Source: Candidatus Omnitrophota bacterium
Lineage (GTDB): Bacteria; Omnitrophota; Gorgyraeia; Zapsychrales; Fredricksoniimonadaceae
Length of the DNA stretch: 64,000 nucleotides
Assembly: GCA_002753465.1 (NCBI GenBank)
Contig: PEAF01000001.1
Coordinates: 69,455-133,454 of the forward strand
Reading direction: 5' to 3'
The position numbers and the translations under genes are program-made. Under the pieces are notes generated by a model, which saw only the letters and a program-made list of their open reading frames with translations, ran no database searches and had not been told where the DNA came from. The first letter of the stretch is position 1. Every line of letters starts with the position of its first letter. This document shows positions 3,046-27,415 of the stretch, in pieces.

Positions 3046-4866
3046 TTATTCTTTCAGGACTTTATAAATATCTAAAATGTACCCACCCAGCTGCTGATGC
3101 AAAGTTAATTCCAAATGCCCTTGGAAATTTGAGGCTAACATTGCTTTTGTATAATAATCTGGGAATAATTCCCAATCCCAAAGGTATTGGTTGCCCTTAT
3201 CGTATACCAAATAGAGCCAATCAACATCGTTTAAAGTTTTGATCGAACTTAAAGGCCGTGCCCAACTGACTATAGCCAACTTTTTAGCAAAAGCGTTAGC
3301 ATCAACATGGAAGTCCCTGGAGATATAATTTTTGACCAGATCTACCCTTGCTTTCATCAGTATTTCAGTTTTGTTGATAGGGTCAGCCCAACCGTTAACG
3401 ATCATATAGTTACAGAATTTCTCCCAATCGATCCCTAACCCTTCAATATCATTCTTAAAGAACATGCCGTTATTAAGTGATGGAATATCACGGAAAATCC
3501 TTTTACGGGGATTTTCCTGATTCATTCTTTTGAGCTCTGCGCCGAGATCAGGATAAGACATTCCTCTGAAATACTGCGGTCCATGGTAATAGTAAACAAA
3601 CAGAGGGAGGAATAAATCTGTATCGATCTCAATGCTGATTTTTTGTTCAGGAAGGGTCTTGAATTCTCGGGCAGTTTTCGCCAGTACCGCCACGTCCGCC
3701 GGATAACCGGTTATAGTCTTCGAAGAATTGGGATTGAAATGGACCAGATAAACGGTAATTAATGAAAAAATCAGCACACAGGCTGTCAAGATATGGCGTT
3801 TTCGTGACCTAAGGTTCTGTAAAAATACGGCCACCAGGATAAACCAGGGGAAAAGATAGCTGAAGAAATACCTCGATCGCATGGGATCACAAACTTTATA
3901 TGTCAGGAAAGTGACCGTGCTTAAGGGTAACAGCAGGATAATTACCAAGGAGATGAGATAACGGCCCTGGGGATCGTTTTTCTTTAATAAAATGACAGAA
4001 TATCTAATTGCCGCGATCAAAAGTACGAGGAATAACAGGAAAAAAGGAAGATTAGAAAATGGAGTAACCATTCTCTCCAGCAAAGATGACCAGACCTCCC
4101 CACCGGGTAACTGGTTGGAGGAACTTACCGCCACTTCCCTGTAAAGGTCTTCTTTGAGATGTTTTGCCCATGGGATCAAGGCAAACGGGGTCAAAACGAT
4201 CCACCAGGTCAAAGCACGGTGCGCCCTGTTACGGAATAAGAAAATCAGTAAAAGAAATTCAATAAGGATAACAAAGATCCCAAAGTAAAATGTATAAAGG
4301 ATCGCGGTGTTAACGACGAATAATCCTAAATAAGTCCATACACGATGATCTTTGAACTTTACGAAACGGAAAAATATATAAAATGAAATAATAGTCAGTG
4401 CATTCAATAAAGAATAGTGCCGGATCATTTTGGCGTAAATTATGTACGAATGATTTACTACAGCGAAGAATACGGCATACAGCGCTACGATCTTGTCAAA
4501 AAGCAGAACACAAAGCTTATAAATGAAGAAGATGGCTATCCCCGTGAAGACCAGTGACAAGAAACGAGGGAGGATCAAATTCTGGCCTGAAATATCCCAG
4601 AAGAAATGCAGCACCGTTTCATATAACGGCGGGAGGGTATTAAAATAAAACTTGTTCGCATGGCTATCCATGCTCCAGATCATACTCAGCGGACGTTGTG
4701 CAATGTTGATGCTGAAGAATTCGTCGATCCATAGAAGGTAATCATTTATATTATAAAACCACAGCAGTCCCATCAAAATGAACATCAAAAGTAAAGAATA
4801 TTGCGATGAGAAAATAGCGGTCAATTTTTTATGGCCGGTATCTATCAGTTCTTGCAGTTCTATCAT
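3046..4866 (-). CDS. GT-C fold membrane glycosyltransferase (PMT_2/ArnT-like) with a C-terminal soluble domain
   Basis: It has many predicted TM helices and a first-loop acidic motif WIDEFFS like the D-E motif of GT39/GT83 enzymes. Its C-terminal tail (GGYILDIYKV) resembles those of the paralogs at 16862-18502 and 20008-21645. Confidence 0.7.
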   Translation of the reverse strand: MIELQELIDTGHKKLTAIFSSQYSLLLMFILMGLLWFYNINDYLLWIDEFFSINIAQRPLSMIWSMDSHANKFYFNTLPPLYETVLHFFWDISGQNLILPRFLSLVFTGIAIFFIYKLCVLLFDKIVALYAVFFAVVNHSYIIYAKMIRHYSLLNALTIISFYIFFRFVKFKDHRVWTYLGLFVVNTAILYTFYFGIFVILIEFLLLIFLFRNRAHRALTWWIVLTPFALIPWAKHLKEDLYREVAVSSSNQLPGGEVWSSLLERMVTPFSNLPFFLLFLVLLIAAIRYSVILLKKNDPQGRYLISLVIILLLPLSTVTFLTYKVCDPMRSRYFFSYLFPWFILVAVFLQNLRSRKRHILTACVLIFSLITVYLVHFNPNSSKTITGYPADVAVLAKTAREFKTLPEQKISIEIDTDLFLPLFVYYYHGPQYFRGMSYPDLGAELKRMNQENPRKRIFRDIPSLNNGMFFKNDIEGLGIDWEKFCNYMIVNGWADPINKTEILMKARVDLVKNYISRDFHVDANAFAKKLAIVSWARPLSSIKTLNDVDWLYLVYDKGNQYLWDWELFPDYYTKAMLASNFQGHLELTLHQQLGGYILDIYKVLKE

Positions 4867-4899
4867 CAGAACCTCATTTGGTTTAGGAACATGCGGGTT

Positions 4900-6390
4900 T
4901 TAATGAACCCTTGTAGTTAAATACCTGAATAACTTTCTTAAGAAGAATTCCATGCATTTTATACCCATAAGTATGAAAAATACGATCCGTGACAATATTT
5001 TAACAAAGACAGCTTTGATGCCGGGCCGTGTGCCGGGCAGTTCAGGTCTTTTCGTTGGCCTGAAGAAAGCGGACTGGATGGTTCTGTTAGCATAAGTACA
5101 TAAGTATGCCCAGAAAATATCATCACGGATCTCTGATTCTGAGGTCCCTTCAGGTACATACGGCAGATGTTGCTTGTACCAAAAGATATTCAAAAAGGTT
5201 ACAATGGCGTTAAAATTCTGGTATTCCTTCTCTACAAATAGACGGCTATCTTTTTTAGCTAATTGATAGAGTTCTGTCCCCGGATACGGAACAGCATTGT
5301 TAAACTTTACCTGGTCTAGTTTTAGTTCTTTGGCCAGGTCTATGGCGGCCATCCGGTCGTCATGTTTCTCGCCAGGCAAACCAAACATGAATGTAGCGGT
5401 AACCTCAAAGCCAATTGATTTGGCAAGACGGATAGCATCACAGATTTGACGAAGCGTTTCACCTTTTTTGATCAATTTCATGACATCTTCAGAAACGGTT
5501 TCAATACCGAAACCGATCTTATAAAAACCAGCGGTAAAAAGTTCCTTCAAAAGATCCGGGTCAGCATTATCGCCGCGGCCTTGACAGCTGAATAAAGCAC
5601 GATGGTGCAAGCCGCGCGTTTTGATCCCGTCGATCAAATCCATGGCCCTTGCTTTGTTAAACCAGAAATTATCGTCCTGAAAATCGATTTCACGGACGCC
5701 GTAATGATTTATGAGCAGGTCCAATTCCTGTAAAACAAGCGCCGTCGGACGAAATCGGTAGTGCTTACCCGTGGTGAGTTGATTGCTGCAAAAAATACAA
5801 TTATAAGGGCATCCGCGTGAGGTCCGTATAAACCCAAGATCATAGCGCTTAGGATCGAACCTATGGTATGGAAAGGGCGGAAATGAATCGATGTTTAAAC
5901 AGCCGCCGAGAGGGTTATGGATGAACAGATCCTTTTGCCGGTAGGATATCCCTTCCAGGGATTGCCAGGGCCCCTTATTTTTTAAATGCCGGTATAAGGC
6001 TGGTAAAACACCCTCTCCCTCACCGCGTACAACGATGTCCACCTCAGGATGCGACAGACAATCTTCAGGCATGGATGTAGGGTGTATGCCGCCAAAGATA
6101 ATGAAGCAGTCAGGGTATTTTTCTTTGAGTCTCTGAGCCATTGTCAAAGCGACATGAAAAGAAGCGGTCAGGACGCTGAAGCCGAAGATATAAGGAGGTT
6201 TCAATGACGTTGTAAGTGTGCAGATACGCTGGAACGAATCAGGATCAATTTGCTCATCTACGATGTGCGCTGTGATCCCATCTCTTTCACATACAGCCAG
6301 AAGGTAACCGATGCCCATAGGCAGGAGGGTTTGCTTAACGGGTTGAAATATCCCGGCATTATCGCGTGGCGAAGGATTAATGAGTATCAT
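4900..6390 (-). CDS. B12-binding-domain radical SAM enzyme (class B type)
   Basis: The N-terminal Rossmann-type segment LLPMGIGYLLAVCERDGITAHIVDEQ is followed by the radical SAM cluster motif SRGCPYNCIFCSN. The C-terminal tail is hydrophobic (AVFVKILSRIVFFILMGIKCMEFFL). Confidence 0.85.
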   Translation of the reverse strand: MILINPSPRDNAGIFQPVKQTLLPMGIGYLLAVCERDGITAHIVDEQIDPDSFQRICTLTTSLKPPYIFGFSVLTASFHVALTMAQRLKEKYPDCFIIFGGIHPTSMPEDCLSHPEVDIVVRGEGEGVLPALYRHLKNKGPWQSLEGISYRQKDLFIHNPLGGCLNIDSFPPFPYHRFDPKRYDLGFIRTSRGCPYNCIFCSNQLTTGKHYRFRPTALVLQELDLLINHYGVREIDFQDDNFWFNKARAMDLIDGIKTRGLHHRALFSCQGRGDNADPDLLKELFTAGFYKIGFGIETVSEDVMKLIKKGETLRQICDAIRLAKSIGFEVTATFMFGLPGEKHDDRMAAIDLAKELKLDQVKFNNAVPYPGTELYQLAKKDSRLFVEKEYQNFNAIVTFLNIFWYKQHLPYVPEGTSESEIRDDIFWAYLCTYANRTIQSAFFRPTKRPELPGTRPGIKAVFVKILSRIVFFILMGIKCMEFFLRKLFRYLTTRVH

Positions 6391-6502: not shown

Positions 6503-6937
6503 ATGAGTAAGGCGATCAGTAAAAAAGCTATTCAGGCCCCCACACACCTTAATGACCCTGTTGACTATAAGAAAGCTTTCTCCAGAGGTTTACGCGTTTC
6601 CCCGGGTAACAGGGATTTTATTTTTATGTCAGGCACTGCAAGCTTGAACAATAAAGGTGAAACTTGCCACAAAGGCAATTTCACGGCTCAGGCAAAACGT
6701 ACTTTTGAAAACCTGACTGCCCTTTTAAAATCAGAAAAAGCTGACTGGCACGACGTGATCCATACGCGCTGCTATTTAAAGAGCATGAAATATTATAAAC
6801 AATTCAATGATGTCAGAAATCAATTCTATCAAGATCAGGCGCTTGACCCGTTCCCTGCCAGTGTTTGTGTGCAAGCCGTTCTTTGCCGCCCTGAGTTGCT
6901 TGTTGAGATCGAACTTATTGCCATATTGAAGAAGTAA
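6503..6937 (+). CDS. RidA/YjgF/TdcF-family reactive-intermediate deaminase
   Basis: FMSGTASLNNKGE...AQAKRTFENLTALL...VIHTRCYLKSM...PASVCVQAVLCRPELLVEIELIA follows the YjgF/RidA pattern. AAAGGA SD. The 3' end overlaps the convergent gene by 23 nt. Confidence 0.8.
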   Translation: MSKAISKKAIQAPTHLNDPVDYKKAFSRGLRVSPGNRDFIFMSGTASLNNKGETCHKGNFTAQAKRTFENLTALLKSEKADWHDVIHTRCYLKSMKYYKQFNDVRNQFYQDQALDPFPASVCVQAVLCRPELLVEIELIAILKK

Positions 6938-8015
6938 TATCTCCGTAGCTATCAACCAGAGCGAATCCGCAATGTAAGGCAAAGCTTTCTGGGTGGCAAT
7001 GACCGCTCAGAACGCCATGTTTAAAATATGAATGAGTTTTACAGCCGCCGTCACATTGTTTAAATGAGGTGCAAGCCAGGCATCGAGCGGCTGGCGTGTA
7101 CTCCTGCTTTTGTTTTATTTTAAAGAGCTTGTAGATCACGTTTAAATCTTCCGTCAGAACATTACCCAGTGAAAACTTTTCAGGTAAGAACGGACACGGT
7201 AAAACTTCACCTGAAGCTGTTACAGACAATGCTTTTTTATAACACGCACAGCCACCGCTCGCCGCAATAAAAGGCAGGCCTTTCTTTGTTAGGAAATCCC
7301 TAATTACGGCTTCGGCTTGTTCTGTTGCCAGGGCATACGCCTCGTCGGACAATTCAAACATCGCATTAACCTCAGCTGAGGCTACAGCGACATAGCGTTC
7401 AAAGACAGGGAAAGTACCTAAGGCCAATGATCTGGACACAATGCCGGCAATGTCGGCTGAATTATCTTTAAGCAGCGGTGTAAAAGTGATCACGCGCAGG
7501 CCATTGTGGCGACAAGCCCGGATATTTTCTTCTATGTGGGAAAGACTGAAGCGTGATTGTTGTGTATGGAGTTTGTACAGCGCATCATTCGCGTCATATT
7601 TCACCACAAGCAATGGATCGTACGTCTTTAAGCGGCGGATCATTTCAGCAGCTAATAATGAACCGTTGGTATAAATAAACGGTTGCATGTGCAGTGACTT
7701 GATCTTGTCCAGGATCACCCACAAAGACGCCGACAAAAGCGGTTCTCCACCTAAAAGAGCAATCTTTTTTACGCCCAAGGCTTTGGCGTGGCCAATAACA
7801 GTCAGCCAGTCGTCTTCTGTTAATGAGGTAGTATTCTTATCGACGTAACAGTAGGTGCATTGGTAGTTACAGGTATGTGATAAGTGCAGTTCGAGCTTTT
7901 CTAAAGCATGAGGTGCTTTCGAGCGATAGACCTGTACTAGTTTTGTACAAAGGTTTTCGCCGCCCAAGAAATAGACAGTCCGTAAGAAACAGCGTAACAG
8001 TCTATTGGCGATCAT
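6915..8015 (-). CDS. Radical SAM enzyme with a full SPASM auxiliary-cluster domain
   Basis: SHTCNYQCTYCY supplies CxxxCxxC. The C-terminus has C-x10-G-x4-C (CYKKALSVTASGEVLPC) and CLACTSFKQCDGGC (CX2CX5CX3C). The start overlaps the stop of the upstream cysK-like gene by 4 nt. Confidence 0.85.
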   Translation of the reverse strand: MIANRLLRCFLRTVYFLGGENLCTKLVQVYRSKAPHALEKLELHLSHTCNYQCTYCYVDKNTTSLTEDDWLTVIGHAKALGVKKIALLGGEPLLSASLWVILDKIKSLHMQPFIYTNGSLLAAEMIRRLKTYDPLLVVKYDANDALYKLHTQQSRFSLSHIEENIRACRHNGLRVITFTPLLKDNSADIAGIVSRSLALGTFPVFERYVAVASAEVNAMFELSDEAYALATEQAEAVIRDFLTKKGLPFIAASGGCACYKKALSVTASGEVLPCPFLPEKFSLGNVLTEDLNVIYKLFKIKQKQEYTPAARCLACTSFKQCDGGCKTHSYFKHGVLSGHCHPESFALHCGFALVDSYGDITSSIWQ

Positions 8016-8941
8016 GTTAAACCGAATAATTTTGTTGAAAGATAACGGTCACCGCCATCAGGCAGAATGACAACGATCTTCTTGCCGGCGTTTTCGGTAC
8101 GTTGGGCTAAGTGTAAAGCCGCCCACATAGCCGCTCCACAGGAAAAGCCGCCCATGATCCCTTCTTGAGCCGCTAATTGGCGTGCAGTTTTCTTGATATC
8201 CGTATCATGCACATGGATGTATTCATCAACAAGCCTTTGATCGAACACCTCGGCTGCCGGCTCAAGGCCAGTCCTCAGGATCCTTTGCCACCAATGAGGA
8301 TTGGGTGATGATAAAGGAAAATCATCCAACACAACAGCTATGGCTTTTATGGCGGGATTATGCACTTTTAAGGCCTGAGCTAATCCTGTAAACGTACCGC
8401 CGGTTCCGACACCCGTTACAAGAATATCCACATTCCCGCTCATATCTTGCCATATTTCCTGTGCTGTAGTTTTGCGATGTATCTCAGGATTTATGGGATT
8501 TTTGAATTGATGAAGCAAGACGGAGTTAGGCGTAGTGGAAGCTAAGCGCTCAGCCTTGCGTATGGCGCCGCTCATGCCCTGCCATCCCGGTGTCACGATG
8601 ACATCCGCGCCTAATGCCCGTAATATTTTATAACGTTCAGCTGGCATGCTTCCAGGGATCGTAACGATCAGCCGGTAACCTTTTACAGCGGCGATACCAG
8701 CCAAAGCAATACCTGTATTGCCGCTTGTCGGCTCTATGATAACTGAGTCGGACTTGAGAATGCCCCGCTTGTGGGCATCATCGATCATGGCCAGCGCGAC
8801 ACGGTCCTTCACACTGCCAAAAGGATTAAAGGATTCCAGTTTGGCGTAAATTTCAGCATGCAGTCCCTTTGTAATGCGATTAAGTTTTACCAGGGGCGTT
8901 TTACCGATAGCTTGAGTTACGTCAGGATAATTTTCCAACAA
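8012..8941 (-). CDS. CysK/CysM/CBS-family PLP-dependent beta-replacement enzyme (cysteine synthase-like)
   Basis: Carries NPFGSVKDR (PLP lysine), TSGNTGIALA, GVGTGGTFTG and GFSCGAA. The region that normally reads GPHKIQGIG is divergent here (NPHWWQRILRTGLEP). Confidence 0.8.
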   Translation of the reverse strand: MLENYPDVTQAIGKTPLVKLNRITKGLHAEIYAKLESFNPFGSVKDRVALAMIDDAHKRGILKSDSVIIEPTSGNTGIALAGIAAVKGYRLIVTIPGSMPAERYKILRALGADVIVTPGWQGMSGAIRKAERLASTTPNSVLLHQFKNPINPEIHRKTTAQEIWQDMSGNVDILVTGVGTGGTFTGLAQALKVHNPAIKAIAVVLDDFPLSSPNPHWWQRILRTGLEPAAEVFDQRLVDEYIHVHDTDIKKTARQLAAQEGIMGGFSCGAAMWAALHLAQRTENAGKKIVVILPDGGDRYLSTKLFGLT

Positions 8942-16815: not shown

Positions 16816-16861
16816 TCATTGTTGGTGAAATGCCTTGATCTGGGCAGGGATAAGTTTGTTG

Positions 16862-18626: not shown

Positions 18627-20003
18627 ATGCTCGATCTGATCCTGATCAATGATTATTCTCGCCAACACCAACCGTTTTCTTACGGTAAAATATGTTTGAC
18701 CGAGTTCCTGGTCCATAAAGGATGGAGAGTTCGTCTCATACAACCGGATGAAATCTTCAGGTTAGGACATGATCCAGCCCGATTCTTTGGTTTAGGTTCA
18801 TGGAGTTCGGACTTCCACCGTGTTGTTGAGACGGCAAATTTCTTAAAGAAAAACTACCCTAAAGTTCCGGTTATTTGCGGGGGAGGTCACATTACGGCCT
18901 GCCCTGGCGAACTTCAAGCATACACTGACATTTTCGATTATTGGGTTTTAGGCGAAGGTGAAGTGGCTCTTCACGAGATCCTTCAAGGACAGCATCAACC
19001 CCGTACCCTGATCACAAGACTTGTTCCTGAACAGGACCTGCTCCCCCCCTCTATCGCCCATAGTCCGATCATGAATGGTTCGTATATCGGTATTGCTTCC
19101 AGAGGATGTCCGCATGCCTGCACATTTTGCAACACGCATACCATGTTCGGTCATAAGACGCGCAATATTCCGATCGAAAAATATTTGCCGTTCCTGAAAG
19201 ATCTTATCCGTAAAGGTATGGTGACGCTCAGCTTCAGAGATCCGAGCTTTCTTAATAATATAAACTGGGCGACTGATTTTTGTACGGCCGTCGTCAAAGA
19301 AGATATTAAATTCAATTGGCTTGCGAGCTGTTGTGCTGAGCAATTAACAGAAGAACGGGTCTTAATGATGAAAAGAGCGGGTTGTATTGGTATTACGATA
19401 GGTGTTGAGTCAGGATCCCAGGCGATGTTGAACATTATGCATAAAACAGCCGGTCTGAGTGAAATGAAGAAAGCCATCAGTCTCTGCAAGGGTAATAAAA
19501 TCCATACACATCTTAATCTTATGTATGGGATCGTTGGTGAAACATATGAAACTATGGCTGCCACACGTGAGTTCTGCCGGCAAACAAAGCCGGACTCGAG
19601 GACACTTTTTTTATACGAGCCGTTTCCAGGAACTGTAATGTTTAGTGAGGCAGAAAGAAACAACCTATTAAGCCCTTATAACTGGGTTAAAGGAAAAATG
19701 CCTCAGCTATTGTCAACAGGGTTTATGACAAGGGCTGAGGTCATAAAAGAGGCTGATCGTCTTTGGCATACCGGTCCTTTTCATCAGTACCTCCGTAATG
19801 CGAATTTGAAGATGAACATGCTCTTTGTGCCTGGCGTTTTGGTTCGAGTTGTTCTTTTAAAGATCCTTTTGTTGTTGAACCAACGCCCCACCCATGTAAA
19901 CCCTCGGCCTTTAAATAGATTTCAACAAGTATGGCAAACTTACACGATCAACTTAATAGGTAAGATCCAAATATATTTACATATTTCTTTATTAAGTACA
20001 TGA
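18627..20003 (+). CDS. B12-binding-domain radical SAM enzyme (class B type), paralog B
   Basis: SRGCPHACTFCNT. I moved the start to ATG 18627 because MLDLILIND matches the N-terminus of paralog A; the track's 18615 start is a TTG. Confidence 0.85.
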   Translation: MLDLILINDYSRQHQPFSYGKICLTEFLVHKGWRVRLIQPDEIFRLGHDPARFFGLGSWSSDFHRVVETANFLKKNYPKVPVICGGGHITACPGELQAYTDIFDYWVLGEGEVALHEILQGQHQPRTLITRLVPEQDLLPPSIAHSPIMNGSYIGIASRGCPHACTFCNTHTMFGHKTRNIPIEKYLPFLKDLIRKGMVTLSFRDPSFLNNINWATDFCTAVVKEDIKFNWLASCCAEQLTEERVLMMKRAGCIGITIGVESGSQAMLNIMHKTAGLSEMKKAISLCKGNKIHTHLNLMYGIVGETYETMAATREFCRQTKPDSRTLFLYEPFPGTVMFSEAERNNLLSPYNWVKGKMPQLLSTGFMTRAEVIKEADRLWHTGPFHQYLRNANLKMNMLFVPGVLVRVVLLKILLLLNQRPTHVNPRPLNRFQQVWQTYTINLIGKIQIYLHISLLST

Positions 20004-20007
20004 AGAT

Positions 20008-21645: not shown

Positions 21646-21648
21646 TAA

Positions 21649-22419
21649 TTATACCTTAGTGCATCTGGCGGTAATGAACCAACCGGTGAACGATCTTGTA
21701 TTTTTATTTCTGTCTAAGAAATCTGCGAAGCGCGTAAAGAATATGGCTGTTTTCATAAGAAGATCAGTTGATAGGGACCCTCGCAAGAGTTTTAGGATCG
21801 AATTTGATGGATTGATTATATGCACCACAACAGCATATTCTTTGGCCATCAATCCAGCCGACTTTAAGTGACGGTCAAGTTCATGCGGGGTGTAAAACTG
21901 AACCGGCCCGGTTCCTTTTACCAACCAACTTTCAATAGTAAGCCAAAAACAGAAATTAAAATTACATTTGTTGTTCATAGCTAATAAAATAGTGCCGTCA
22001 GGTTTAAGCACCCTGCGGAGTTCTTTCAAGGCGCGGGTTAATTCATCTGAACGCTTAAAATGATCAAGGGTGGACGTAGACAGTATCAGGTCAAAAGTAT
22101 TATCCTTAAAAGGAAGGTGGCGTACATCGCCGTTGATATAAGCCTGGTCTTTTTTTGATCGCTCCTTGCGTATAAGATCTGCCTGGACAACCGTTGAGAG
22201 GCAGATATCAATAGCATAAAACTGTGATCCCTTGCCATTCAGTGAAAAAAGAAGTTCATCTTCCCCATAGGCTTCTTCACGCAGATCAGTCTTAAGCACC
22301 GTCATTTTATCAGTACTTATTCCCCAGGCTTGAAGTATTTTCCTGAATTGATCGGATTTATAGCGGCCAAGAACCGGATCAATATGTGAAAGTGCTTTCT
22401 TCGAAACATTGCACGTCAT
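21649..22419 (-). CDS. Class I SAM-dependent methyltransferase
   Basis: FDLILSTSTLDHFKRSDELTRALKELRRVLKPDGTILL follows the Methyltransf_11/25-like pattern. Start is set at ATG 22419 (TGATATG junction with the upstream stop at 22421) rather than the track's 22473. Confidence 0.75.
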   Translation of the reverse strand: MTCNVSKKALSHIDPVLGRYKSDQFRKILQAWGISTDKMTVLKTDLREEAYGEDELLFSLNGKGSQFYAIDICLSTVVQADLIRKERSKKDQAYINGDVRHLPFKDNTFDLILSTSTLDHFKRSDELTRALKELRRVLKPDGTILLAMNNKCNFNFCFWLTIESWLVKGTGPVQFYTPHELDRHLKSAGLMAKEYAVVVHIINPSNSILKLLRGSLSTDLLMKTAIFFTRFADFLDRNKNTRSFTGWFITARCTKV

Positions 22420-22420
22420 A

Positions 22421-23839
22421 TCAGTGCCCTTTGGATACGTTGCACAGGATACGCGCATATTTCTGCAGGCCATACCGGAAGCCCTTTAATCCTGTAGGGT
22501 ATAATCTGAAAAATGATACGTAACCATCCCATAACCAGAAAATATAGGCGTAGAATTTGCCCCAGGGATAATGGATCATTTTACGTATCATCGGCCACAG
22601 CCAGGGGAATTCAACAGCCACAGCAAATAATTTATGAAGGTTTTCGACAGCAAGTTTCTCTTTATTATTAGTGTGAATTATATGCGAATGCCATTCAGAC
22701 CAGGCATGATCCTGCGCTAATAAACCTTTCTCCAAACAATATTCACGAATAGCGGTCTGCGGGTACGGCATCAGTAATTTAACAGTACAGTAATCCACAT
22801 GGCATTGCCAGTTAAGATGAAGTGTTGCAATATCATCCTGCAAAGTTCCTTCGGGGATCCCTAGAATATTAGTTGTTTCTAGCTTTAAGCCGGCTTTCTT
22901 AATGATCCGTGCCGCATCAATAATATCCTGTTTAGACATGCCGCGGTTCAAAACACGACGGCGCAGATCATCATTGGCAGTTTCCAGCCCGATTGAAATG
23001 GTTACACAGCCTGACTTTTTAAGGTATCCGATCATCTCTTCATTGACCAGTTCAACACGTATGTAACAAGAAAACGGGATATGCACATGTTGGGAGTATT
23101 GTTCAGCAAATCGTCGTATCCACGTTATATCAGATGCAAAAAGATCATCTTCGAACATTATAAATGCCACCCGCGCTTTAGTGCATGTTTGCCGGATCTC
23201 CAGGATCACATTCTCGACGCTTCTCCGGCGAACTTTTTTAGAGCTAACGCCATAAAGCTGGTTAAAGGGCGGATGCGAACAATAGGTACATTCAAAAGGG
23301 CAACCGCGGCTTGTCAGCACATGCATCTTACCTTTATGGAATGTTTCGTTCTCTTGAAACAGTTCTCTGTCAGCAAAAGGGAGTGTATCCAGGTTATCAA
23401 TCAAAGGCCTTAACGGGTTCTTAAAAACTATACCATTGTCTTTTACCCATAAATTGGATATCCCTGAAATCGGTTTTCCCGATTCCATGGCATTGGCTAA
23501 TTCAAGGAAAGCGTGTTCTCCTTCCCCGATACACACACAGTCCACCCCATCTTCATAGATCACTTCAGGAACATAGGTAGGATGAGGACCTCCCCAGATT
23601 GAAAAAACTTTGAATTGCGCTTTGATCTTTTTGTTCAATATGAGGTAATCCTGAGCGTAAATGGTCGGAACGCTAAAGGCTATGATCGAAAATGGTTTAT
23701 GCGATAATCTGGCAGCAACTTTGTCAAATATCGACTCAACGATCTCAACCGTATGCCCGGCATCTTTTAATATCCTCGAAAGGAGCATGATGCCCAGGTG
23801 TTCTATATCGCCATGTTTAACAATAAATAAGATATTCAT
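22421..23839 (-). CDS. B12-binding-domain radical SAM enzyme (class B type)
   Basis: MNILFIVKHGDIEHLGIMLLSRILKDAGHTVEIVES, SRGCPFECTYCSH, and an aromatic/hydrophobic C-terminal tail (FYAYIFWLWDGYVSFFRLY). The start abuts the upstream stop (TAAATG). Confidence 0.85.
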   Translation of the reverse strand: MNILFIVKHGDIEHLGIMLLSRILKDAGHTVEIVESIFDKVAARLSHKPFSIIAFSVPTIYAQDYLILNKKIKAQFKVFSIWGGPHPTYVPEVIYEDGVDCVCIGEGEHAFLELANAMESGKPISGISNLWVKDNGIVFKNPLRPLIDNLDTLPFADRELFQENETFHKGKMHVLTSRGCPFECTYCSHPPFNQLYGVSSKKVRRRSVENVILEIRQTCTKARVAFIMFEDDLFASDITWIRRFAEQYSQHVHIPFSCYIRVELVNEEMIGYLKKSGCVTISIGLETANDDLRRRVLNRGMSKQDIIDAARIIKKAGLKLETTNILGIPEGTLQDDIATLHLNWQCHVDYCTVKLLMPYPQTAIREYCLEKGLLAQDHAWSEWHSHIIHTNNKEKLAVENLHKLFAVAVEFPWLWPMIRKMIHYPWGKFYAYIFWLWDGYVSFFRLYPTGLKGFRYGLQKYARILCNVSKGH

Positions 23840-24877
23840 TTACGATATTTTCGCTTCATTAGAAGAAACGGTGTCTGTTTGAGGTTTTTGACGCATAATG
23901 CAATCAGAACTATTGAATTGATCAAGGTAGGGATGTTTTTTCATGCGCGACCAAATGGTTTTCAATTGTTCTGTACGAATATTGCCGGTAGTGAATGGAA
24001 CAAAGCAGCATGGTTGTACATCCCCGTAAGGAGAAACATAGAGCATTTTCTTTAACACAGCATTGCATTCAGTAAACTTGTTACAAACGCCTTCAATATA
24101 AACAAAAAGTGGATCAAGCAAATCTTTCACAATTTGCTTTTCCTGCGCGTTTAAGATCACATTCTTGCAGCCAAGCCATTTGCCGGCTGGGATGGAAAGC
24201 AGGATGCGAACGCCGTGAGCGCTCCTATTTCGGGCAAGTTCTATAATCGCCTTCAAATCACCGTTTTGAATATTCAGACTTGTCGCATATGTAGAGAAAA
24301 TAACAGGGATACCGGCAGCAACACAGGATTGTACAGCTTCCATGGCTTTTTTGAAAATTCCTGGTGATCCTCTTAAAGCATCATGGACTTCGGCGATGGC
24401 GCTATCGACGCTGATATTAATAAAATTAAGGCCTTTTTGTTTTAAGACAGCCGCATAGCCACTGGTGAGCAAAAGACCATTGGTACTTAACCCCGTTACC
24501 ATGCCCAGATCATTGGCATAAGCAATGCATTCCGGCAGATCTTTTCTCAGTAATGGTTCCGCCCCGGCAAAAACTACAAAATAAACGCCAAGGTCCGAGG
24601 CTTGACGCAGTATGGCGTATATTTCCTGTAAAGTTAATTCCGTCGCATTCTGCCGGCTTTGACCATGTATGCCGCAATGCTCACAACTGAGCTGGCAATG
24701 ATATGTAACGCCAATTTCCAGCGATTGAGGAATGCCGGTTCCCCGCCAGGCAGAAACAGTTTTTTTAAACAATACGATAATTTTGGCATGTAAGGGCAAA
24801 GCACGAAAGAAAAGTTCATAATGATATTTCTTCAGTTCAAGCCATCGCCCGATGAACGTTTGATTTGGGTGCTTCAT
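23840..24877 (-). CDS. Radical SAM enzyme with a twitch-like (half-SPASM) C-terminal motif
   Basis: TYHCQLSCEHCGI supplies CxxxCxxC, followed by GAEPLL. The C-terminus has C-x13-G-x4-C (CNAVLKKMLYVSPYGDVQPC) but no CX2CX5CX3C. Confidence 0.8.
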   Translation of the reverse strand: MKHPNQTFIGRWLELKKYHYELFFRALPLHAKIIVLFKKTVSAWRGTGIPQSLEIGVTYHCQLSCEHCGIHGQSRQNATELTLQEIYAILRQASDLGVYFVVFAGAEPLLRKDLPECIAYANDLGMVTGLSTNGLLLTSGYAAVLKQKGLNFINISVDSAIAEVHDALRGSPGIFKKAMEAVQSCVAAGIPVIFSTYATSLNIQNGDLKAIIELARNRSAHGVRILLSIPAGKWLGCKNVILNAQEKQIVKDLLDPLFVYIEGVCNKFTECNAVLKKMLYVSPYGDVQPCCFVPFTTGNIRTEQLKTIWSRMKKHPYLDQFNSSDCIMRQKPQTDTVSSNEAKIS

Positions 24878-24908
24878 TTTTATGCCTTAAATAATTCTTA
24901 TCAGTAAC

Positions 24909-25985
24909 TCACGGGATCAGCGTACGAAAAACCTTGTCCAGTAATTCTGAAAAACTTTCTTTGGAACATCCTCTCATAACGCGGCAGAACATTTTGTCAC
25001 AGGTGGACATCTTTTGAAGTTTCTGTCGGGTTAAAGGGTCACGCCAAATATCATTCAATGATCGTTTGGAAAGATTTCCAATAGAATCCGGTATAAAAGT
25101 ACAAGGGTAAACGTCACCCTGCTCCATAACCCACAAATGATTGCCGAGGGCTTTACATGTACGTAAACGCTCTTGTACCGGGTGATTAAAATAATCCTTC
25201 ATCCGTTCCAATTGACCGTATGGATCAATGATAAATTTATTACTGCGCTTTAATGCGCACAAATTATCAATGATACGATCTACTTTGAGTTTGTCATCGG
25301 GGAAAAGTTCGTTTTCTGACTTAAACTGATGGTTCCTGCCCACACCCGTCATGTCGATGACACCTTGAAAGGAAATGGCAATACGACGCTGTTTGGCAAA
25401 ATCAGCAAGGGGCAGTATCTCATCAAGGTTTGATTTCATGATCGTTGTATTGATCTGAAGGGGGACTTTACGCACTAAAAGGTCGATGGCCGACATGACC
25501 TTGTCATACGTTCCTTTTACCCCCCTCATCGTGTCATGCGTTTCCGGGTTAAGCCCATCCAGGGAAATCTGTAGCATGGAAACTTTGTTGCGTATTAACA
25601 CGCCGGCTGCTTTGGCATTGATCAAGGAGGCATTCGTTGTAATGACAATGCCAATATTATGATGAGCAGAGAATTCAACCAGTTCCAGAAAATCCTTTCT
25701 AAAGAATGGTTCTCCTCCGTAAAAACGCAAGAAACAAGGGCCAACAGATTTTTTAATGTCTAAAATGATGTCCCGCCACTGGTGGGTAGACAACTCCTCC
25801 TTAATTTCATGCTTCCACATGGAACATTGCTGGCAACGCAAATTACACTTATGGGTCAACCGGATATCAATTAGATTCGGTGGCTGGCTAAATGTAATCC
25901 CCTGCAGTTGATCAAGGATCTGTTTCTTGGCGACACTAACGCCGCAATGAAGAAGCCGTGATAACCCTGAATGCGCTCGCATCAT
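24909..25985 (-). CDS. Radical SAM enzyme with a SPASM-like C-terminal domain
   Basis: THKCNLRCQQCSM and GGEPFF. The C-terminus has C-x12-G-x4-C (CKALGNHLWVMEQGDVYPC) plus the non-canonical CDKMFCRVMRGC. Confidence 0.8.
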   Translation of the reverse strand: MMRAHSGLSRLLHCGVSVAKKQILDQLQGITFSQPPNLIDIRLTHKCNLRCQQCSMWKHEIKEELSTHQWRDIILDIKKSVGPCFLRFYGGEPFFRKDFLELVEFSAHHNIGIVITTNASLINAKAAGVLIRNKVSMLQISLDGLNPETHDTMRGVKGTYDKVMSAIDLLVRKVPLQINTTIMKSNLDEILPLADFAKQRRIAISFQGVIDMTGVGRNHQFKSENELFPDDKLKVDRIIDNLCALKRSNKFIIDPYGQLERMKDYFNHPVQERLRTCKALGNHLWVMEQGDVYPCTFIPDSIGNLSKRSLNDIWRDPLTRQKLQKMSTCDKMFCRVMRGCSKESFSELLDKVFRTLIP

Positions 25986-25996
25986 AAAAGAACCTC

Positions 25997-27415
25997 TTAC
26001 ACTTTTCTTCTAAAATTAATTCTTGGGTTAATCTTTTTCATAACAAGTAATAGCTTAGAAACCGGATACTCAAGATGAAAAATAAAAAAGAAACAAAATC
26101 CGTCAATGGACCTACACGTAATCAGATGGATAAATGTTAACAAAAACTGCTCCGACCGCAACCTGATTGTGTTATAAACTGCATTTTTCTGTGATTCGTA
26201 AGCCAAATAATAGGGAGACTTACGTTTTTCTAACCAATAATCCTGGTTAATGAGATCCTTTTTAACAGCATCCTGATATAAAGTGCTGCCTGGCGAGAGG
26301 TACAAAGAAAAGATAGCTAAATGTGTAGGCTGAACCCTCCAAAGCAGTTTTACTGTTGTGATCCAGTCAGATACGGGCCTTTCTGGCCATCCCGCGATTA
26401 CATTTAACCTGAGTGACATTTTAAGAGACCTCGCAAGTCGAACAACCTTAGTGAGATTCTCATAATTGATGGTGATATGGCGATGGCGTTTTGCTAATGC
26501 GGGATCCATGCAGTCGGCACCTATCGTAAACCCCATACACCCTGCTTTATGGACCCACATGACAGTTTCCTCATCAATGTGATTGGGGTGAGTCTGAAAG
26601 AGCCACTGGATTTTTAGGCCACGTTTAATGATCTTTTTACATATGGTAATGACGCGCTCTTTATCAAAAGTAAAAAGTGGGTCCCAAAACATGAATTTTG
26701 ATGTTTGATGGGTCAGACTTATTTGCTCGAGCATATTGACCACACGCTCAGGTGAATGTGCTCGCCATTTACCGCAGCTCATCATATGTTCCGGACAATA
26801 GGAACAATGATAATAACAACCTCGTGATGAAATAATTTCAAAAAGGCGATCGAACGAGCCTATGCGAAATAGTCCTGCCCCTCCCAATGGGCTAAAAAAG
26901 TATAATTCAGGTGACTCAGAACAATCGATATGATCATAAAAATTATCCAGATCAGCATGCGGAGTAAGCTGATCAGTTATTTGAACGATTCCCCGGGTAT
27001 CCCTATAGGCCAAATTATGTACGTCAGAAATATCACGTTTCTCTTCAACGTGCTCGACTAATTCTTTCATGGGGATCTCTCCTTCGCCCAAAATAATAAA
27101 ATCGACGAAGGGAAATCTTTCAAGAAGTGTCTGATGGAAAACAGTGGCGTGAATATTTCCTAAAACGATCTTCACGTCAGGGTAAGATTCTTTTAAGGTT
27201 TTTGCCACGTCAAGAACATCCCAAATACCCGGGGTATAGCAAGTTAATCCAATGAGTGCGGGTGGTCGCCCAGGCCATAATTGAAGCAAATTATCCTTAA
27301 AAGGAGGTTTCAATCTTGCCAAGATTACATCATGACCCTCATTTTCTAAATAAGATGCAATATAACGTAATCCGATTGGATATGACTCATAGGTACTTAA
27401 AAGGCCGACCAACAT
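25997..27415 (-). CDS. B12-binding-domain radical SAM enzyme (class B type)
   Basis: YPIGLRYIASYLENEGHDVIL and SSRGCYYHCSYCPEH, with a hydrophobic C-terminal tail (IDGFCFFFIFHL). AGGAGA SD upstream. Confidence 0.85.
   Translation of the reverse strand: MLVGLLSTYESYPIGLRYIASYLENEGHDVILARLKPPFKDNLLQLWPGRPPALIGLTCYTPGIWDVLDVAKTLKESYPDVKIVLGNIHATVFHQTLLERFPFVDFIILGEGEIPMKELVEHVEEKRDISDVHNLAYRDTRGIVQITDQLTPHADLDNFYDHIDCSESPELYFFSPLGGAGLFRIGSFDRLFEIISSRGCYYHCSYCPEHMMSCGKWRAHSPERVVNMLEQISLTHQTSKFMFWDPLFTFDKERVITICKKIIKRGLKIQWLFQTHPNHIDEETVMWVHKAGCMGFTIGADCMDPALAKRHRHITINYENLTKVVRLARSLKMSLRLNVIAGWPERPVSDWITTVKLLWRVQPTHLAIFSLYLSPGSTLYQDAVKKDLINQDYWLEKRKSPYYLAYESQKNAVYNTIRLRSEQFLLTFIHLITCRSIDGFCFFFIFHLEYPVSKLLLVMKKINPRINFRRKV

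Follow-up and report, generated by a model that had tools for sequence, protein, structure and literature searches.

A radical-SAM-rich island with three GT-C genes in Omnitrophota most likely makes unusually modified cell-surface sugars

Eight radical SAM (rSAM) genes and three GT-C glycosyltransferase genes lie within 24 kb (positions 3046-27415) of a 64-kb window, the whole stretch of DNA analysed here, which comes from an uncultivated bacterium. Its HtpG similarity assigns the window to Candidatus Omnitrophota. Relatives of the island enzymes sit in polysaccharide gene clusters, which makes the production of unusually modified cell-surface sugars its most likely role. Based on gene context (guilt by association), we lean towards a membrane-associated pathway that combines radical sugar remodelling with attachment to an envelope glycan or glycoconjugate at the periplasmic face. 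The analysis itself establishes which domains the proteins carry, the GT-C and class B folds and the absence of a precursor ORF. If the glycan reading is true, the sugar-modifying chemistry of the island is without characterised precedent.

Composition of the island

All eight CxxxCxxC motifs quoted in a first-pass annotation were found in their listed ORFs. Translated in all six frames, the 64-kb window contained only 14 such motifs, eight of them in the island rSAMs. The radical SAM assignment was borne out by a profile search, in which all eight ORFs matched PF04055 (Radical_SAM; E 5e-13 to 8e-23). The five ORFs said to have a B12-binding N-terminus carried PF02310 there (4900-6390, 22421-23839 and 25997-27415 on the minus strand, 15448-16815 and 18615-20003 on the plus strand), and the three SPASM/twitch candidates matched PF13186 (6915-8015, 23840-24877 and 24909-25985, all on the minus strand). 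The rSAM share of the island was 8 of 19 genes. Genomes of anaerobes typically devote roughly 1–2% of their genes to rSAMs; the density is therefore far beyond chance.

None of the eight rSAMs reached the curated cut-off of a named NCBIfam family, and none was placed in a characterised equivalog family. Full-text literature searches found no link between radical SAM enzymes and GT-C systems. Both results agree with the earlier impression that no characterised cluster is alike.

Intergenic gaps ranged from -53 to 46 nt, with three exceptions (112, 130 and 112 nt). As had been suspected, there is no room for a RiPP precursor: a gap ORF scan revealed no credible small ORF or precursor peptide in any island gap. 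The GC content of the rSAM/GT-C part (0.42–0.43) was lower than that of the flanks (0.46–0.49). Variable polysaccharide cassettes of ~25 kb have been reported in Omnitrophota (bioRxiv 10.64898/2026.06.07.730766).

Gene context in other genomes

Two class B rSAM types of the island have ~30–45% identical relatives in polysaccharide loci with Wzx, Wzy, GT2 and GT4. Relatives of the rSAM at 15448-16815 (~30% identity) were found in loci with Polysacc_synt (Wzx), O-ag_pol_Wzy, GLF, NeuB, GT2, GT4 and methyltransferases. Those of the rSAM at 22421-23839 accompanied a BY-kinase-like ATPase, a MurJ-type flippase, Wzy_C and Phosphodiest in a Brocadiaceae locus (40–42% identity), and Wzx, a pyruvyltransferase, GT2 and Phosphodiest in a PVC-group locus. 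Overall, the neighbours of rSAM/GT-C homologues comprised Wzx, Wzy, MurJ-type flippase, GT2, GT4, NeuB, GLF and pyruvyl-, formyl- and carbamoyl-transferases. The first-pass annotation had proposed an envelope lipid, glycolipid or glycan pathway; this context supports its glycan/glycoconjugate branch, while the pure-lipid option gained no positive support.

A four-gene cassette on the minus strand recurs at 43–51% identity in two other metagenomic lineages (L005/L091 and L093/L094). It consists of two SPASM-type rSAMs, SPASM-A (24909-25985) and SPASM-B (23840-24877), the B12-binding rSAM at 22421-23839 and a class I SAM-dependent methyltransferase (21649-22473; PF08241 8.5e-18). SPASM-A was 50% identical to L005 11825-12934 and 43% to L093 6612-7694, SPASM-B 51% to L005 17200-18243 and 47% to L093 10001-10954, and the methyltransferase 43% to L005 13065-13817 and 47% to L093 7781-8530. 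For the B12-binding member, the identities to the L005 and L093 counterparts were 47% and 43%. Flanking genes of the cassette in L005/L091 are two PMT_2 genes, GT2, GT4, AsnB, Formyl_trans_N, an acetyltransferase and CapK_C; in L093 they are GT4 and an ATP-grasp gene.

All three B12-rSAM/GT-C adjacencies of the window recur elsewhere. The 15448 type adjoins a GT-C gene in L001 (53% identity). The 22421 type does so in L005/L091 and lies within ~5 kb of one in L018, L019, L020 and L025. In a Thermodesulfovibrionia locus (L058), a 36% identical relative of the 4900 type lies immediately upstream of a PMT_2 gene. L144 holds a compact analogous module (carbamoyltransferase, MT, U32, B12 rSAM, PMT_2, B12 rSAM, SPASM, U32). 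A check of neighbourhood conservation had been proposed earlier, and the association was indeed kept in other lineages (L001, L005/L091, L058 and L144). Both the cassette and the adjacencies are thus conserved, and the homologues have a polysaccharide context. A point against the preferred reading is that the neighbourhoods of the 22421 type were heterogeneous across 17 mostly Chloroflexota genome loci, and a GT-C gene flanked this rSAM in only 7 of 80 loci.

Radical SAM and GT-C enzymes

The rSAM + GT-C unit is tandemly duplicated inside the window, with a register of 3179 nt. The rSAMs of the two copies (15448-16815 and 18615-20003, plus strand; both with PF04055 and PF02310) are 64% identical, and each is convergent with a GT-C gene (16862-18502 and 20008-21645, respectively). 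The 15448-16815 family is very rare, with just three members at ≥50% identity among 5.8 billion proteins. Its AF2 model (pLDDT 84) had TsrM, MgmA, AprD4 and TokK as nearest folds, i.e. the class B fold, with OxsB and CysS also among the matches; the last 70 residues formed low-confidence helices. The family of 22421-23839 (PF02310 and PF04055; aromatic-rich C-terminal tail) is widespread, with at least 450 relatives at 38–45% identity in species genomes, mainly Anaerolineae.

The remaining two B12-binding rSAMs are on the minus strand. The gene at 25997-27415 (PF02310 1.5e-20, PF04055 5.5e-13; motif CYYHCSYC) opens a six-gene minus-strand unit, and its top NCBIfam match was BchE (125 bits vs a cut-off of 481). 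The gene at 4900-6390 (PF04055 7.9e-23, PF02310 2e-18) is directly upstream of the third GT-C gene (3046-4866) and matched best to ApyD (172 bits, cut-off 750) and HpnJ (150 bits, cut-off 578). HpnJ ranked top or near-top among the NCBIfam matches of three B12 proteins. AprD4 was the best solved sequence relative of both B12 types tested, one of them 22421-23839.

A Kyte–Doolittle scan found one C-terminal 19-residue hydrophobic segment (mean ≥1.6) in each of four of the five B12 rSAMs, including residues 403-421 of 18615-20003, 428-446 of 25997-27415 and 461-479 of 4900-6390. The tail of the fifth is 27% F/W/Y, so that the description of all five tails as hydrophobic or aromatic holds. The same scan detected no such segment in the SPASM proteins.

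All three SPASM proteins contain CX9-15GX4C, as had been noted, and CX2CX5CX3C occurs solely in 6915-8015. SPASM-A (PF04055 2.9e-22, PF13186 1.1e-7) has CX12GX4C. The best solved sequence relative of the twitch-like SPASM-B (PF04055 5.3e-22, PF13186 3.4e-8) was BlsE, a cytosylglucuronate decarboxylase. The full-SPASM enzyme 6915-8015 (PF04055 1.8e-16, PF13186 1.4e-5; CX10GX4C) overlaps cysK by 4 nt, and no NCBIfam match of it came near any cut-off.

The three polytopic proteins had been called GT-C paralogues with a D-E motif, and this was upheld. They are encoded on the minus strand, and their PMT_2 scores were 38.1 (20008-21645; 2.4e-9) and 26.8 bits (3046-4866), above the cut-off of 26.1, and 25.4 bits (16862-18502), just below it. 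The AF2 model of 20008-21645 (pLDDT 74, pTM 0.80) confirms the GT-C fold for this one of the three at the level of a prediction: all 24 PDB chains found by Foldseek at E ≤ 0.001 were GT-C, with a TM of 0.56 to ArnT. Its catalytic-loop W-x-D-E follows TM1, and W32, D34 and E35 were invariant across 10 homologues. The protein at 16862-18502 shows 54% identity with 20008-21645, 30% with the GT-C of L005 and 28% with that of L001. The third, 3046-4866, is more divergent (27% identity to 20008-21645 over 194 aa); it has WIDEFFS after TM1, at least eight hydrophobic segments and a larger C-terminal domain.

Proposed pathway and closest known systems

We infer the substrate class, the membrane side and the order of steps as follows. 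The rSAMs would remodel sugar units on the cytoplasmic side. Because most of the B12-domain enzymes have hydrophobic C-terminal tails, their tethering to the membrane is probable, while the three SPASM/twitch enzymes appear soluble. Candidate reactions are C-methylation, deoxygenation, epimerisation, oxidation, decarboxylation or ring rearrangement. Further changes may be made by the class I methyltransferase, the ArnA-like formyltransferase-fold/GH43-like protein and the CysK/RidA pair. The substrates would probably be bound to polyprenyl phosphate, or be nucleotide sugars just before carrier loading. The three ArnT/PMT-like GT-Cs would then move the lipid-linked products to an acceptor at the periplasmic face, for which a glycan chain, a glycolipid or a surface protein are candidates. 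A priming phosphoglycosyltransferase, Wzx, Wzy and GT2 enzymes of the GtrB/ArnC/Ppm1 type, which make polyprenyl-phosphate-sugar donors, were not found in the window. The pathway as seen is therefore incomplete and depends on genes elsewhere.

Extracytoplasmic glycan decoration by GT-C enzymes with polyprenyl-phosphate monosaccharide donors is described for Gtr-type 'three-component systems' (PMC11127046). The island resembles these and the Arn system (ArnA/ArnC/ArnT) in the PMT_2/ArnT-like GT-C fold with its loop-1 acidic motif, in the ArnA-like formyltransferase-fold protein (a bona fide Formyl_trans_N is present in L005) and in donor-modifying enzymes adjoining a GT-C gene. However, the window has no GtrB/ArnC-type GT2, no GtrA/ArnEF-type flippase and no other Arn gene, and the donor modifiers of the island are radical SAM enzymes, which the full-text search found reported for no GT-C system. 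Wzx/Wzy loci for O-antigen, capsule and EPS (L003, L004, L044 and L069) contain 30–45% identical, likewise uncharacterised relatives of the B12 rSAMs alongside class I methyltransferases and AP-superfamily phosphodiesterases. They differ from the window, which lacks Wzx, Wzy, a chain-length regulator, GT2 and a primer transferase; the island has no GT4 and instead contains three GT-Cs and eight rSAMs.

The island enzymes share class B architecture and fold with known sugar-modifying rSAMs, i.e. AprD4 (1,2-diol dehydratase, PDB 6fd2), BlsE (7vob), HpnJ (hopanoid glucosamine ring contraction) and GenK-type C-methylases. Scores were 54–172 bits vs equivalog cut-offs of 400–750, at identities of ~15–25%; the AprD4/BlsE similarities (54–69 bits) were weak and mostly over the common rSAM core. 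As the pathway partners of all these enzymes are absent from the island, they are analogies and not memberships. RiPP maturase clusters (ApyD, SkfB, PqqE, SCM cassette) likewise share superfamily domains and several consecutive rSAM genes, but the window has no precursor gene, peptidase or exporter partners, maturase-model scores were far under the cut-offs and the island neighbours are glycosyltransferases.

Alternative explanations

PMT_2 is the protein O-mannosyltransferase family, and Pmt4 was among the fold matches. The system could thus be directed at protein, with the PMT_2 enzymes O-glycosylating a secreted or surface protein and the SPASM rSAMs modifying that protein or an unlinked peptide. 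SPASM rSAMs are mostly peptide maturases, and SkfB, PqqE, CteB-like and ranthipeptide models were matched, albeit far under their cut-offs. Two proteins with a signal-peptide-like hydrophobic N-terminus lie in or beside the island. The candidate targets would be an upstream 281-aa protein and the 1199-aa protein at 11718-15317 (minus strand). The latter had been described as a secreted beta-propeller, which fits its PQQ_2 match (2.1e-19; BamB/PQQ-like) and an N-terminal hydrophobic segment (residues 22-40) of the kind usual in signal peptides or anchors. However, neither protein has a counterpart in L001, L005, L093 or L144, tblastn found no match to the propeller in any retrieved related locus, and the gaps hold no short precursor ORF. 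We judge this explanation unlikely, and it merges with the glycan reading if the protein is a mere acceptor of modified sugars.

The hydrophobic tails of four B12 rSAMs would also suit modification of a membrane lipid. In that case the rSAMs would act on the hydrocarbon of an unusual envelope lipid (membrane-spanning, ether, hopanoid-like or ladderane-like) by methylation, cyclisation or cross-linking, and the GT-Cs would do no more than attach a head-group sugar. HpnJ, HpnR and TIGR04072 ('lipid biosynthesis B12-binding/radical SAM protein') were among the NCBIfam matches. SPASM-B had AhbD as its top NCBIfam match and GDGT-MAS among its PDB sequence matches. A preprint (bioRxiv 10.1101/2023.10.20.563219) describes the H-GDGT bridge synthase Hbs as an AhbD homologue with an extension and reports that Omnitrophota have homologues of Hbs and Mss. 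Yet every lipid-family model stayed 3–8 fold under its cut-off, HpnR and HpnJ included, and the earlier analogy with HpnP/HpnR/Grs is a resemblance only. At 345–366 aa, the SPASM proteins are too short to accommodate a C-terminal extension such as that of Hbs, and the island lacks lipid-synthesis genes (tes, mss, cyclase, acyl/alkyl-glycerol). Relatives in L003, L004, L005, L044 and L069 are among sugar-pathway genes, not lipid genes, and L093 and L144 have GT4 or PMT_2 plus carbamoyltransferase without lipid genes. A lipid product accordingly has a low probability.

A diffusible glycosylated natural product (aminoglycoside-, nucleoside- or moenomycin-like phosphoglycolipid) in place of a structural envelope component is improbable. 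The closest solved sequence relatives, AprD4 and BlsE, are antibiotic-pathway enzymes, TokK, OxsB and CysS were fold matches, and carbamoyl- and formyl-transferases occur in related loci. Against this, relatives occupy Wzx/Wzy loci, and the island has no aminocyclitol, nucleoside, NDP-sugar pathway, exporter or resistance genes. GT-C enzymes use lipid-linked donors outside the cytoplasmic membrane and, to our knowledge, are not known from such clusters.

Accessory genes

The AP-fold call for 10681-11721 (minus strand; hydrophobic N-terminus) rests on sub-threshold Metalloenzyme (8e-5) and Sulfatase (5e-4) matches; the alkaline-phosphatase superfamily fold is probable, and a PDB sequence search gave no match. 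The C/S-x-P-x-R motif is missing, which speaks against a formylglycine sulfatase. It is hardly credible that 6915-8015, a full-SPASM rSAM three genes downstream in the same minus-strand run, makes formylglycine from a Cys/Ser of this weakly Sulfatase-matching protein as an anaerobic sulfatase-maturase pair beside unrelated neighbours, as no anSME model was among the best NCBIfam matches of 6915-8015 and just 2 of 19 genes would be accounted for. AP-superfamily Phosphodiest genes repeatedly adjoin rSAM relatives in other loci.

The methyltransferase, CysK and RidA assignments were confirmed by profile. CysK (8012-8941, minus strand; PLP enzyme of the cysteine synthase family, PALP 1e-71) exceeded the TIGR01139 cut-off (355.6 vs 350.95 bits). 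RidA/YjgF (6503-6937; enamine/imine deaminase family, PF01042 7e-23) forms a separate plus-strand unit and stayed under the TIGR00004 cut-off (67 vs 106 bits). The propeller may serve as the acceptor, as a scaffold or in glycan handling. CysK/RidA, the propeller and the AP-like protein were not conserved in related loci and may be unrelated passengers.

The formyltransferase-like fusion (8959-10638, minus strand) is a cytoplasmic two-domain protein. Its N-terminal fold resembles sugar N-formyltransferases (ArnA, GDP-perosamine formyltransferase), a likeness seen at profile level only (family profile: Fmt 3.7e-5, ArnA formyltransferase domain 1.3e-4), and its C-terminal part is GINT1_N/GH43-like (GINT1_N 5e-32). 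The family comprises at least 2417 representative clusters at E ≤ 1e-30, and among 31 members GH43 was matched by 11 and Formyl_trans_N by four.

Composition and layout of the island

The island (3046-27415) is a real, non-random feature of the window, with the domains, folds, conservation and gene context of its genes established. It is probably an envelope-glycan locus with GT-C transfer, set apart by its exceptional density of unassigned radical SAM (rSAM) genes, by a cassette found across lineages and by the recurrent pairing of rSAM and GT-C genes. We consider it rather likely that the island encodes a pathway for tailoring and attaching a glycan or glycoconjugate, in which rSAMs remodel sugars and GT-C enzymes then transfer them. 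We infer the following substrate class, membrane topology and order of steps. On the cytoplasmic side, sugars would be remodelled by the rSAMs, a methyltransferase and a formyltransferase-fold protein, with the B12-type rSAMs kept at the membrane through their C-terminal tails. The substrates would probably be polyprenyl-phosphate-linked sugars, or nucleotide sugars immediately before loading. On the periplasmic face, the three GT-Cs would pass the products to an acceptor.

The first-pass annotation had described intergenic gaps of 0-46 nt apart from three. The large gaps were confirmed (three or four >100 nt; 112, 130 and 112 nt), but the other distances ranged from -53 to 46 nt, overlaps included. 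No island gap held a credible precursor-type small ORF. The earlier statement that there is no room for a RiPP precursor therefore stands, and a RiPP cluster with its precursor gene in the island was rejected; a precursor might lie elsewhere in the genome.

A two-gene unit of a B12 rSAM (+) and a GT-C (-) was tandemly duplicated and has diverged (15448-18502 and 18615-21645). The register of the duplication was 3150-3179 nt, and it extended into the AT-rich upstream region (15397-15437 versus 18569-18609; 76% identity). The rSAMs of the two units were 64% identical and the GT-Cs 54%.

The GC content was 0.42-0.43 in the rSAM/GT-C parts, compared with 0.46-0.49 in the flanks and in the genes of the propeller and alkaline phosphatase (AP)-like proteins. 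Omnitrophota have been reported to carry variable polysaccharide cassettes of about 25 kb (bioRxiv 10.64898/2026.06.07.730766), in keeping with the length of the island and its reduced GC content. No tRNA gene was found in the window, and the ORFs scanned yielded neither transposase nor integrase domains; by these criteria, the window showed no sign of a mobile element.

GT-C glycosyltransferases

Three polytopic proteins of the PMT_2 type are encoded at 3046-4866(-), 16862-18502(-) and 20008-21645(-). One of the three Pfam PMT_2 matches was 0.7 bit below the cut-off. Each protein had at least 7-8 hydrophobic segments in the hydrophobicity scan. The W-x-D-E motif of loop 1, including D34 and E35, was invariant in ten aligned homologues, in line with the earlier description of three paralogous polytopic proteins with a first-loop D-E motif. 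The AlphaFold2 model of 20008-21645 (pLDDT 74, pTM 0.80) was searched against the PDB with Foldseek, and all 24 matches with E ≤ 0.001 belonged to the GT-C superfamily: STT3/PglB, ALG9/ALG12, ArnT (TM 0.56), Pmt4, AftD, AftA and archaeal oligosaccharyltransferase. Emb enzymes were found with weaker E-values. The island proteins are GT-Cs of the PMT_2 type (GT39/GT83-like).

What the island works most like is periplasmic glycan decoration by GT-C enzymes of the Arn/Gtr type (PMC11127046). However, it is not a member of this kind, because GT2 and flippase are missing and its tailoring enzymes are rSAMs. There was no NCBIfam ArnT match, the sole match being to the LA_3751 family with 27 bits (cut-off 200). 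The Arn-pathway neighbours (arnB, arnC, arnA, arnD and arnE/F) were absent from the window, where an ArnA-like fold appeared only in 8959-10638, and weakly. A Gtr-type system has three components (GtrA-like flippase, GtrB-like GT2 and GT-C), of which the window has the GT-C alone; neither a GT2 nor a small flippase was found anywhere in the 64 kb. The window also lacks a chain-length regulator. Primer transferase, Wzx, Wzy and GtrB/ArnC-type GT2 are missing from it as well, which is the main weakness of the proposed glycan pathway; the genes for making the donor and the backbone must lie elsewhere.

A glycosylation or modification directed at proteins would be compatible with the PMT family, and two proteins in or beside the island have hydrophobic N-termini. 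This explanation partly overlaps the glycan pathway. Neither a conserved target nor a precursor was present, and we regard it as unlikely.

Radical SAM proteins

The six-frame translation of the window contained 14 CxxxCxxC strings, eight of them inside the eight island ORFs. All eight motifs quoted previously were reproduced by the ORF map and translations, and every one of these ORFs matched PF04055 Radical_SAM (E 5e-13 to 8e-23). As had been read from the sequence, five ORFs have an N-terminal B12-binding domain (PF02310): 4900-6390(-), 15448-16815(+), 18615-20003(+), 22421-23839(-) and 25997-27415(-). These five have the class B rSAM architecture. The three ORFs with SPASM/twitch motifs likewise held up, all matching PF13186 and carrying CX9-15GX4C. 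The full set with CX2CX5CX3C was present in 6915-8015(-) only; the sets of 23840-24877(-) (SPASM-B) and 24909-25985(-) (SPASM-A) were partial and twitch-like.

Hydrophobic or aromatic tails had been noted on all five B12 rSAMs. A single C-terminal hydrophobic 19-mer was found in four of them, and the tail of the fifth was 27% aromatic. In the same scan, the three SPASM proteins showed neither feature. The AlphaFold2 model of 15448-16815 (pLDDT 84) matched the class B enzymes TsrM, MgmA, AprD4, TokK and OxsB (TM 0.58-0.68), and also CysS. Its last ~70 residues were modelled as low-confidence helices unpacked against the core, which would fit a membrane-interacting tail, short of proof. Cobalamin use is not deducible from the B12 domain of the island rSAMs, because AprD4 carries this domain and yet is not known to use cobalamin.

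One start codon probably needs correction. The ORF 18615-20003(+) comprises 462 aa when started at TTG, but translation is more likely to begin at the ATG of residue 5, because the database version (P0002) has 458 aa and the paralogue begins MLDLILIND.

No island rSAM came near the curated NCBIfam whole-protein cut-off of any named family. The families compared were HpnJ, HpnR, BchE, ApyD, TIGR04072 ('ladderane-type lipid' rSAM), AprD4, AhbD, NirJ, PqqE, MftC, ScmE/F and BlsE. The best ratios of score to cut-off were 172/750 (ApyD), 150/578 (HpnJ), 125/481 (BchE), 107/360 (TIGR04072) and 150/500 (AhbD). A placement in characterised subfamilies, which the first-pass annotation had considered, did not result; judged by these scores, the eight rSAMs belong to subfamilies outside the named ones. 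The type of 15448 and 18615 was very rare: among 5.8 billion clustered proteins, only the protein itself, its paralogue and one 53% homologue were found, and the next matches had ≤31% identity. GT-C 20008-21645 was also rare in the word-based search. Among solved structures, the nearest in sequence to both B12 types examined was AprD4 (67-69 bits); for SPASM-B it was BlsE (54 bits) and for SPASM-A SkfB. All of these similarities were weak and confined mostly to the common rSAM core.

Modification of a lipid core is quite improbable. The hydrophobic tails and the matches to HpnJ, HpnR and TIGR04072 speak for it, and homologues of Hbs and Mss have been reported from Omnitrophota (bioRxiv 10.1101/2023.10.20.563219). 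The scores are far under the cut-offs, no lipid gene is present in the island and the gene contexts are sugar-related. Hbs (H-GDGT bridge synthase) is an AhbD-like SPASM rSAM with a COG4001 extension, clustered with tes or mss (bioRxiv 10.1101/2023.10.20.563219). The SPASM proteins of the island differ, having 345-366 aa and no additional Pfam domain, and the Pfam scan of the window ORFs found no tes/mss-like gene. The membrane pathway proposed in the first pass was for an envelope lipid, glycolipid or glycan; its glycan branch is favoured by the contexts of the homologues, and its purely lipid branch is the less likely.

Related loci

The chief evidence comes from related loci. Loci from other genomes and metagenomes are given L-numbers, and database proteins P-numbers. 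For rSAM 15448, a single close homologue was found (P0003, 53%). It is encoded on a metagenomic contig of 12.7 kb (L001/L002) with the order rSAM, PMT_2, B12 rSAM, B12 rSAM, PMT_2, B12 rSAM. Two homologues with ~30% identity (P0004 and P0007) were found in classical polysaccharide loci with Polysacc_synt (Wzx), O-ag_pol_Wzy, GLF, NeuB, GT2, GT4 and several methyltransferases.

P0042, which shares 28-30% identity with the window GT-Cs, is encoded in an island of strikingly similar composition (L005-L007, L091/L092). It contains two PMT_2, GT2, GT4, AsnB, three SPASM rSAMs, several B12 rSAMs, Formyl_trans_N, Methyltransf_11, Peptidase_U32, an acetyltransferase and CapK_C. Four adjacent genes of our island form a cassette shared with L005 and with a third lineage (L093/L094). 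In pairwise comparison, the identities to L005 and L093/L094, respectively, were 50% and 43% for SPASM-A (24909-25985), 51% and 47% for SPASM-B (23840-24877), 47% and 43% for the B12 rSAM 22421-23839, and 43% and 47% for the class I methyltransferase 21649-22473. In L093, the cassette has a U32 protein, GT4 and an ATP-grasp enzyme as neighbours.

A Peptidase_U32 gene paired with a gene for a ~270-aa protein without Pfam match was common to both cassette-bearing loci (L005 13821-15759 and L093 3505-5383; 43% and 40% identical). Two U32 genes occur in L144 (5177-6367 and 12119-13300) and none in the window. The U32 family includes the O2-independent hydroxylases UbiU/UbiV, TrhP and RlhA.

L144, from a further lineage, has a compact analogous module beside dnaX and recR: carbamoyltransferase, methyltransferase, U32, B12 rSAM, PMT_2, B12 rSAM, SPASM rSAM, U32. 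Identity between its rSAMs and those of the window is only about 25%. In L058 (Thermodesulfovibrionia), a 36% relative of rSAM 4900-6390 lies directly upstream of a PMT_2 gene, mirroring the window pair 4900-6390 and 3046-4866. From L001, L005/L091, L058 and the window, it follows that three B12 rSAM subfamilies each adjoin a GT-C, here and elsewhere. The rSAM/GT-C pairing is therefore conserved outside this genome. GT2 adjoins PMT_2 in L005 and L145, and the genes accompanying the rSAM/GT-C relatives elsewhere are overwhelmingly of sugar pathways.

The 22421-type rSAM was surveyed by a scan of one genome per species. At least 450 relatives with 38-45% identity were found, mostly in Anaerolineae, but also in Aminicenantes, Acidobacteriota, Brocadiaceae, the PVC group, Thermodesulfovibrionia and even archaeal MAGs. 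In the locus of a Brocadiaceae MAG (anammox family; L069 5566-17620, JANLHY010000187.1), the genes of three B12 rSAMs and one methyltransferase stand side by side. A BY-kinase-like ATPase is encoded on one side of them, and a MurJ-type flippase, Wzy_C and a type I phosphodiesterase are encoded on the other. Its gene content makes this locus a clear case of class B rSAMs within a putative polysaccharide assembly locus. In L044 (PVC group), two rSAMs occur with Wzx, phosphodiesterase, methyltransferase, pyruvyltransferase and GT2. The neighbourhoods were heterogeneous in 17 mostly Chloroflexota loci (Pfam census of 126 proteins), where PMT_2 was present in four, Phosphodiest in two and DegT in two, a weak support for a glycan context. 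A GT-C was found in the flank of only seven of 80 22421-type loci, and four of the seven were strong. Because orthologues of the SPASM, methyltransferase and GT-C genes did not accompany the 22421-type rSAM across the 80 loci, this widespread family is no marker of the island.

Loci with Wzx/Wzy and class B rSAMs resemble the island, but the island lacks their assembly genes, which surround the homologues in L003, L004, L044 and L069. The relatives AprD4 and BlsE would fit a diffusible glycosylated natural product. As the GT-C enzymes and the Wzx/Wzy contexts do not fit, such a product is very improbable.

Significance of the rSAM/GT-C pairing

Full-text literature searches for rSAMs with polysaccharide, GT-C or Omnitrophota gave no paper describing such a cluster. 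Neither an rSAM/GT-C system nor such a cassette was found in this literature, in accordance with the initial view that no cluster of this composition has been characterised. A paper on the Kuenenia S-layer glycan was dropped as an rSAM precedent; its text contains neither 'radical SAM' nor a gene cluster. To our knowledge, sugars as substrates of rSAM chemistry are documented almost exclusively in antibiotic pathways and a few lipid head groups, and the role of rSAMs in ordinary cell-surface glycans is essentially unexplored.

More tentatively, and with some doubt, the rSAM/GT-C pairs could represent a new kind of extracytoplasmic glycosylation system with radical chemistry on polyprenyl-phosphate-linked sugars. 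Membrane-tethered class B rSAMs, aided by SPASM rSAMs and the methyltransferase, would act on lipid-linked sugars, and a dedicated GT-C would transfer each rSAM product. The products might be C-methylated, ring-contracted or deoxygenated sugars, so far unknown from bacterial envelopes. The four-gene cassette would then constitute the central part of a new pathway for building sugars in several uncultivated, probably anaerobic lineages. If true, this would enlarge the reaction space of class B rSAMs and give GT-C enzymes a new donor type.

Omnitrophota, Anaerolineae, Brocadiaceae and others are uncultivated and, as far as known, largely anaerobic. The island and its relatives suggest that B12- and SPASM-type rSAMs are routinely used in these groups for diversifying envelope glycans. 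The implied sugar structures are ones that standard glycan analysis would not expect. Concrete testable objects are the conserved cassette and the three recurrent rSAM/GT-C pairings. The presumed lifestyle of Omnitrophota is one of attachment to other cells or predation on them, and their surface glycans likely matter for host contact.

Accessory proteins

Profile matches upheld the earlier calls of a class I methyltransferase (21649-22473(-)), a CysK-like enzyme (8012-8941(-)), RidA (6503-6937(+)) and a 1199-aa propeller protein with PQQ_2 and a hydrophobic N-terminus (11718-15317(-)). CysK was just above the cut-offs (TIGR01139: 355.6 versus 350.95 bits; TIGR01136: 363.8 versus 344.15 bits); because of this small margin, a related beta-replacement activity is possible.

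For 8959-10638(-), 'formyltransferase-like fusion' was a reasonable description as regards likeness of sequence. It belongs to a very large, uncharacterised family with at least 2417 representative clusters (E ≤ 1e-30). Of the 150 best matches, nearly all were full-length, at about 550 aa. Through the N-terminal half, a 31-member family profile matched Fmt (3.7e-5), the ArnA formyltransferase domain (1.3e-4) and GDP-perosamine formyltransferase. The likeness is visible with the family profile only: single-sequence PDB searches with this protein and with the AP-like protein gave nothing. The C-terminal half corresponds to GINT1_N, with additional GH43 matches in 11 of the 31 members. The protein looks sugar-directed.

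The 'AP-fold' of 10681-11721(-) was supported by two matches, both sub-threshold. An anSME/sulfatase pair has a negligible probability and was rejected because the sulfatase motif C/S-x-P-x-R is missing from the AP-like protein. AP-superfamily phosphodiesterases recur near rSAM relatives in other loci. CysK, RidA, the propeller and the AP-like protein had no counterparts in the related loci compared and may be lineage-specific additions or passengers.

Genomic surroundings

On one side, the island is bordered by rsmH. At 1544-3024(-), the gene immediately after the third GT-C encodes a 142-aa protein (weak YunG-like match) and is overlapped by rsmH over 4 nt. The alignment of RsmH with the MraW model begins only at residue 56, giving an N-terminal extension of about 55 residues.

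On the other side, 27573-31709 contains glgE, for the maltosyltransferase of alpha-glucan synthesis, and a GT4/GT5-like gene of the glycogen-synthase type. The end of glgE is overlapped over 62 nt by the ORF of a 281-aa protein, which has a hydrophobic segment at its N-terminus and lacks a Pfam match; because of this overlap, translation probably begins at the internal MNHMNK. A FocA/NirC-type channel follows at 31729-35931, then an AsrC/AsrB/AsrA-like anaerobic sulfite reductase set (NIR_SIR+Fer4, NAD_binding_1+DHODB_Fe-S_bind and Fer4_22) and a hemerythrin. This gene content suggests a module of anaerobic sulfite or nitrite metabolism.

HtpG is encoded at 52907-54751, and its best named relatives (90% to 72% identical) are in Candidatus Omnitrophota/Omnitrophica MAGs, which assigns the window to the Omnitrophota (PVC group). 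The type II/IV secretion ATPase (T2SSE) at 41580-43718(-) has an N-terminal MshEN domain and a C-terminally fused response-regulator receiver, and two PAS/Cache histidine kinases adjoin its gene. One run of genes at 44814-49530(-) encodes a protein of the cyclopropane-fatty-acid-synthase family (CMAS, 2e-88), GT4 and a 755-aa protein without Pfam match, and may be a second envelope-related unit.
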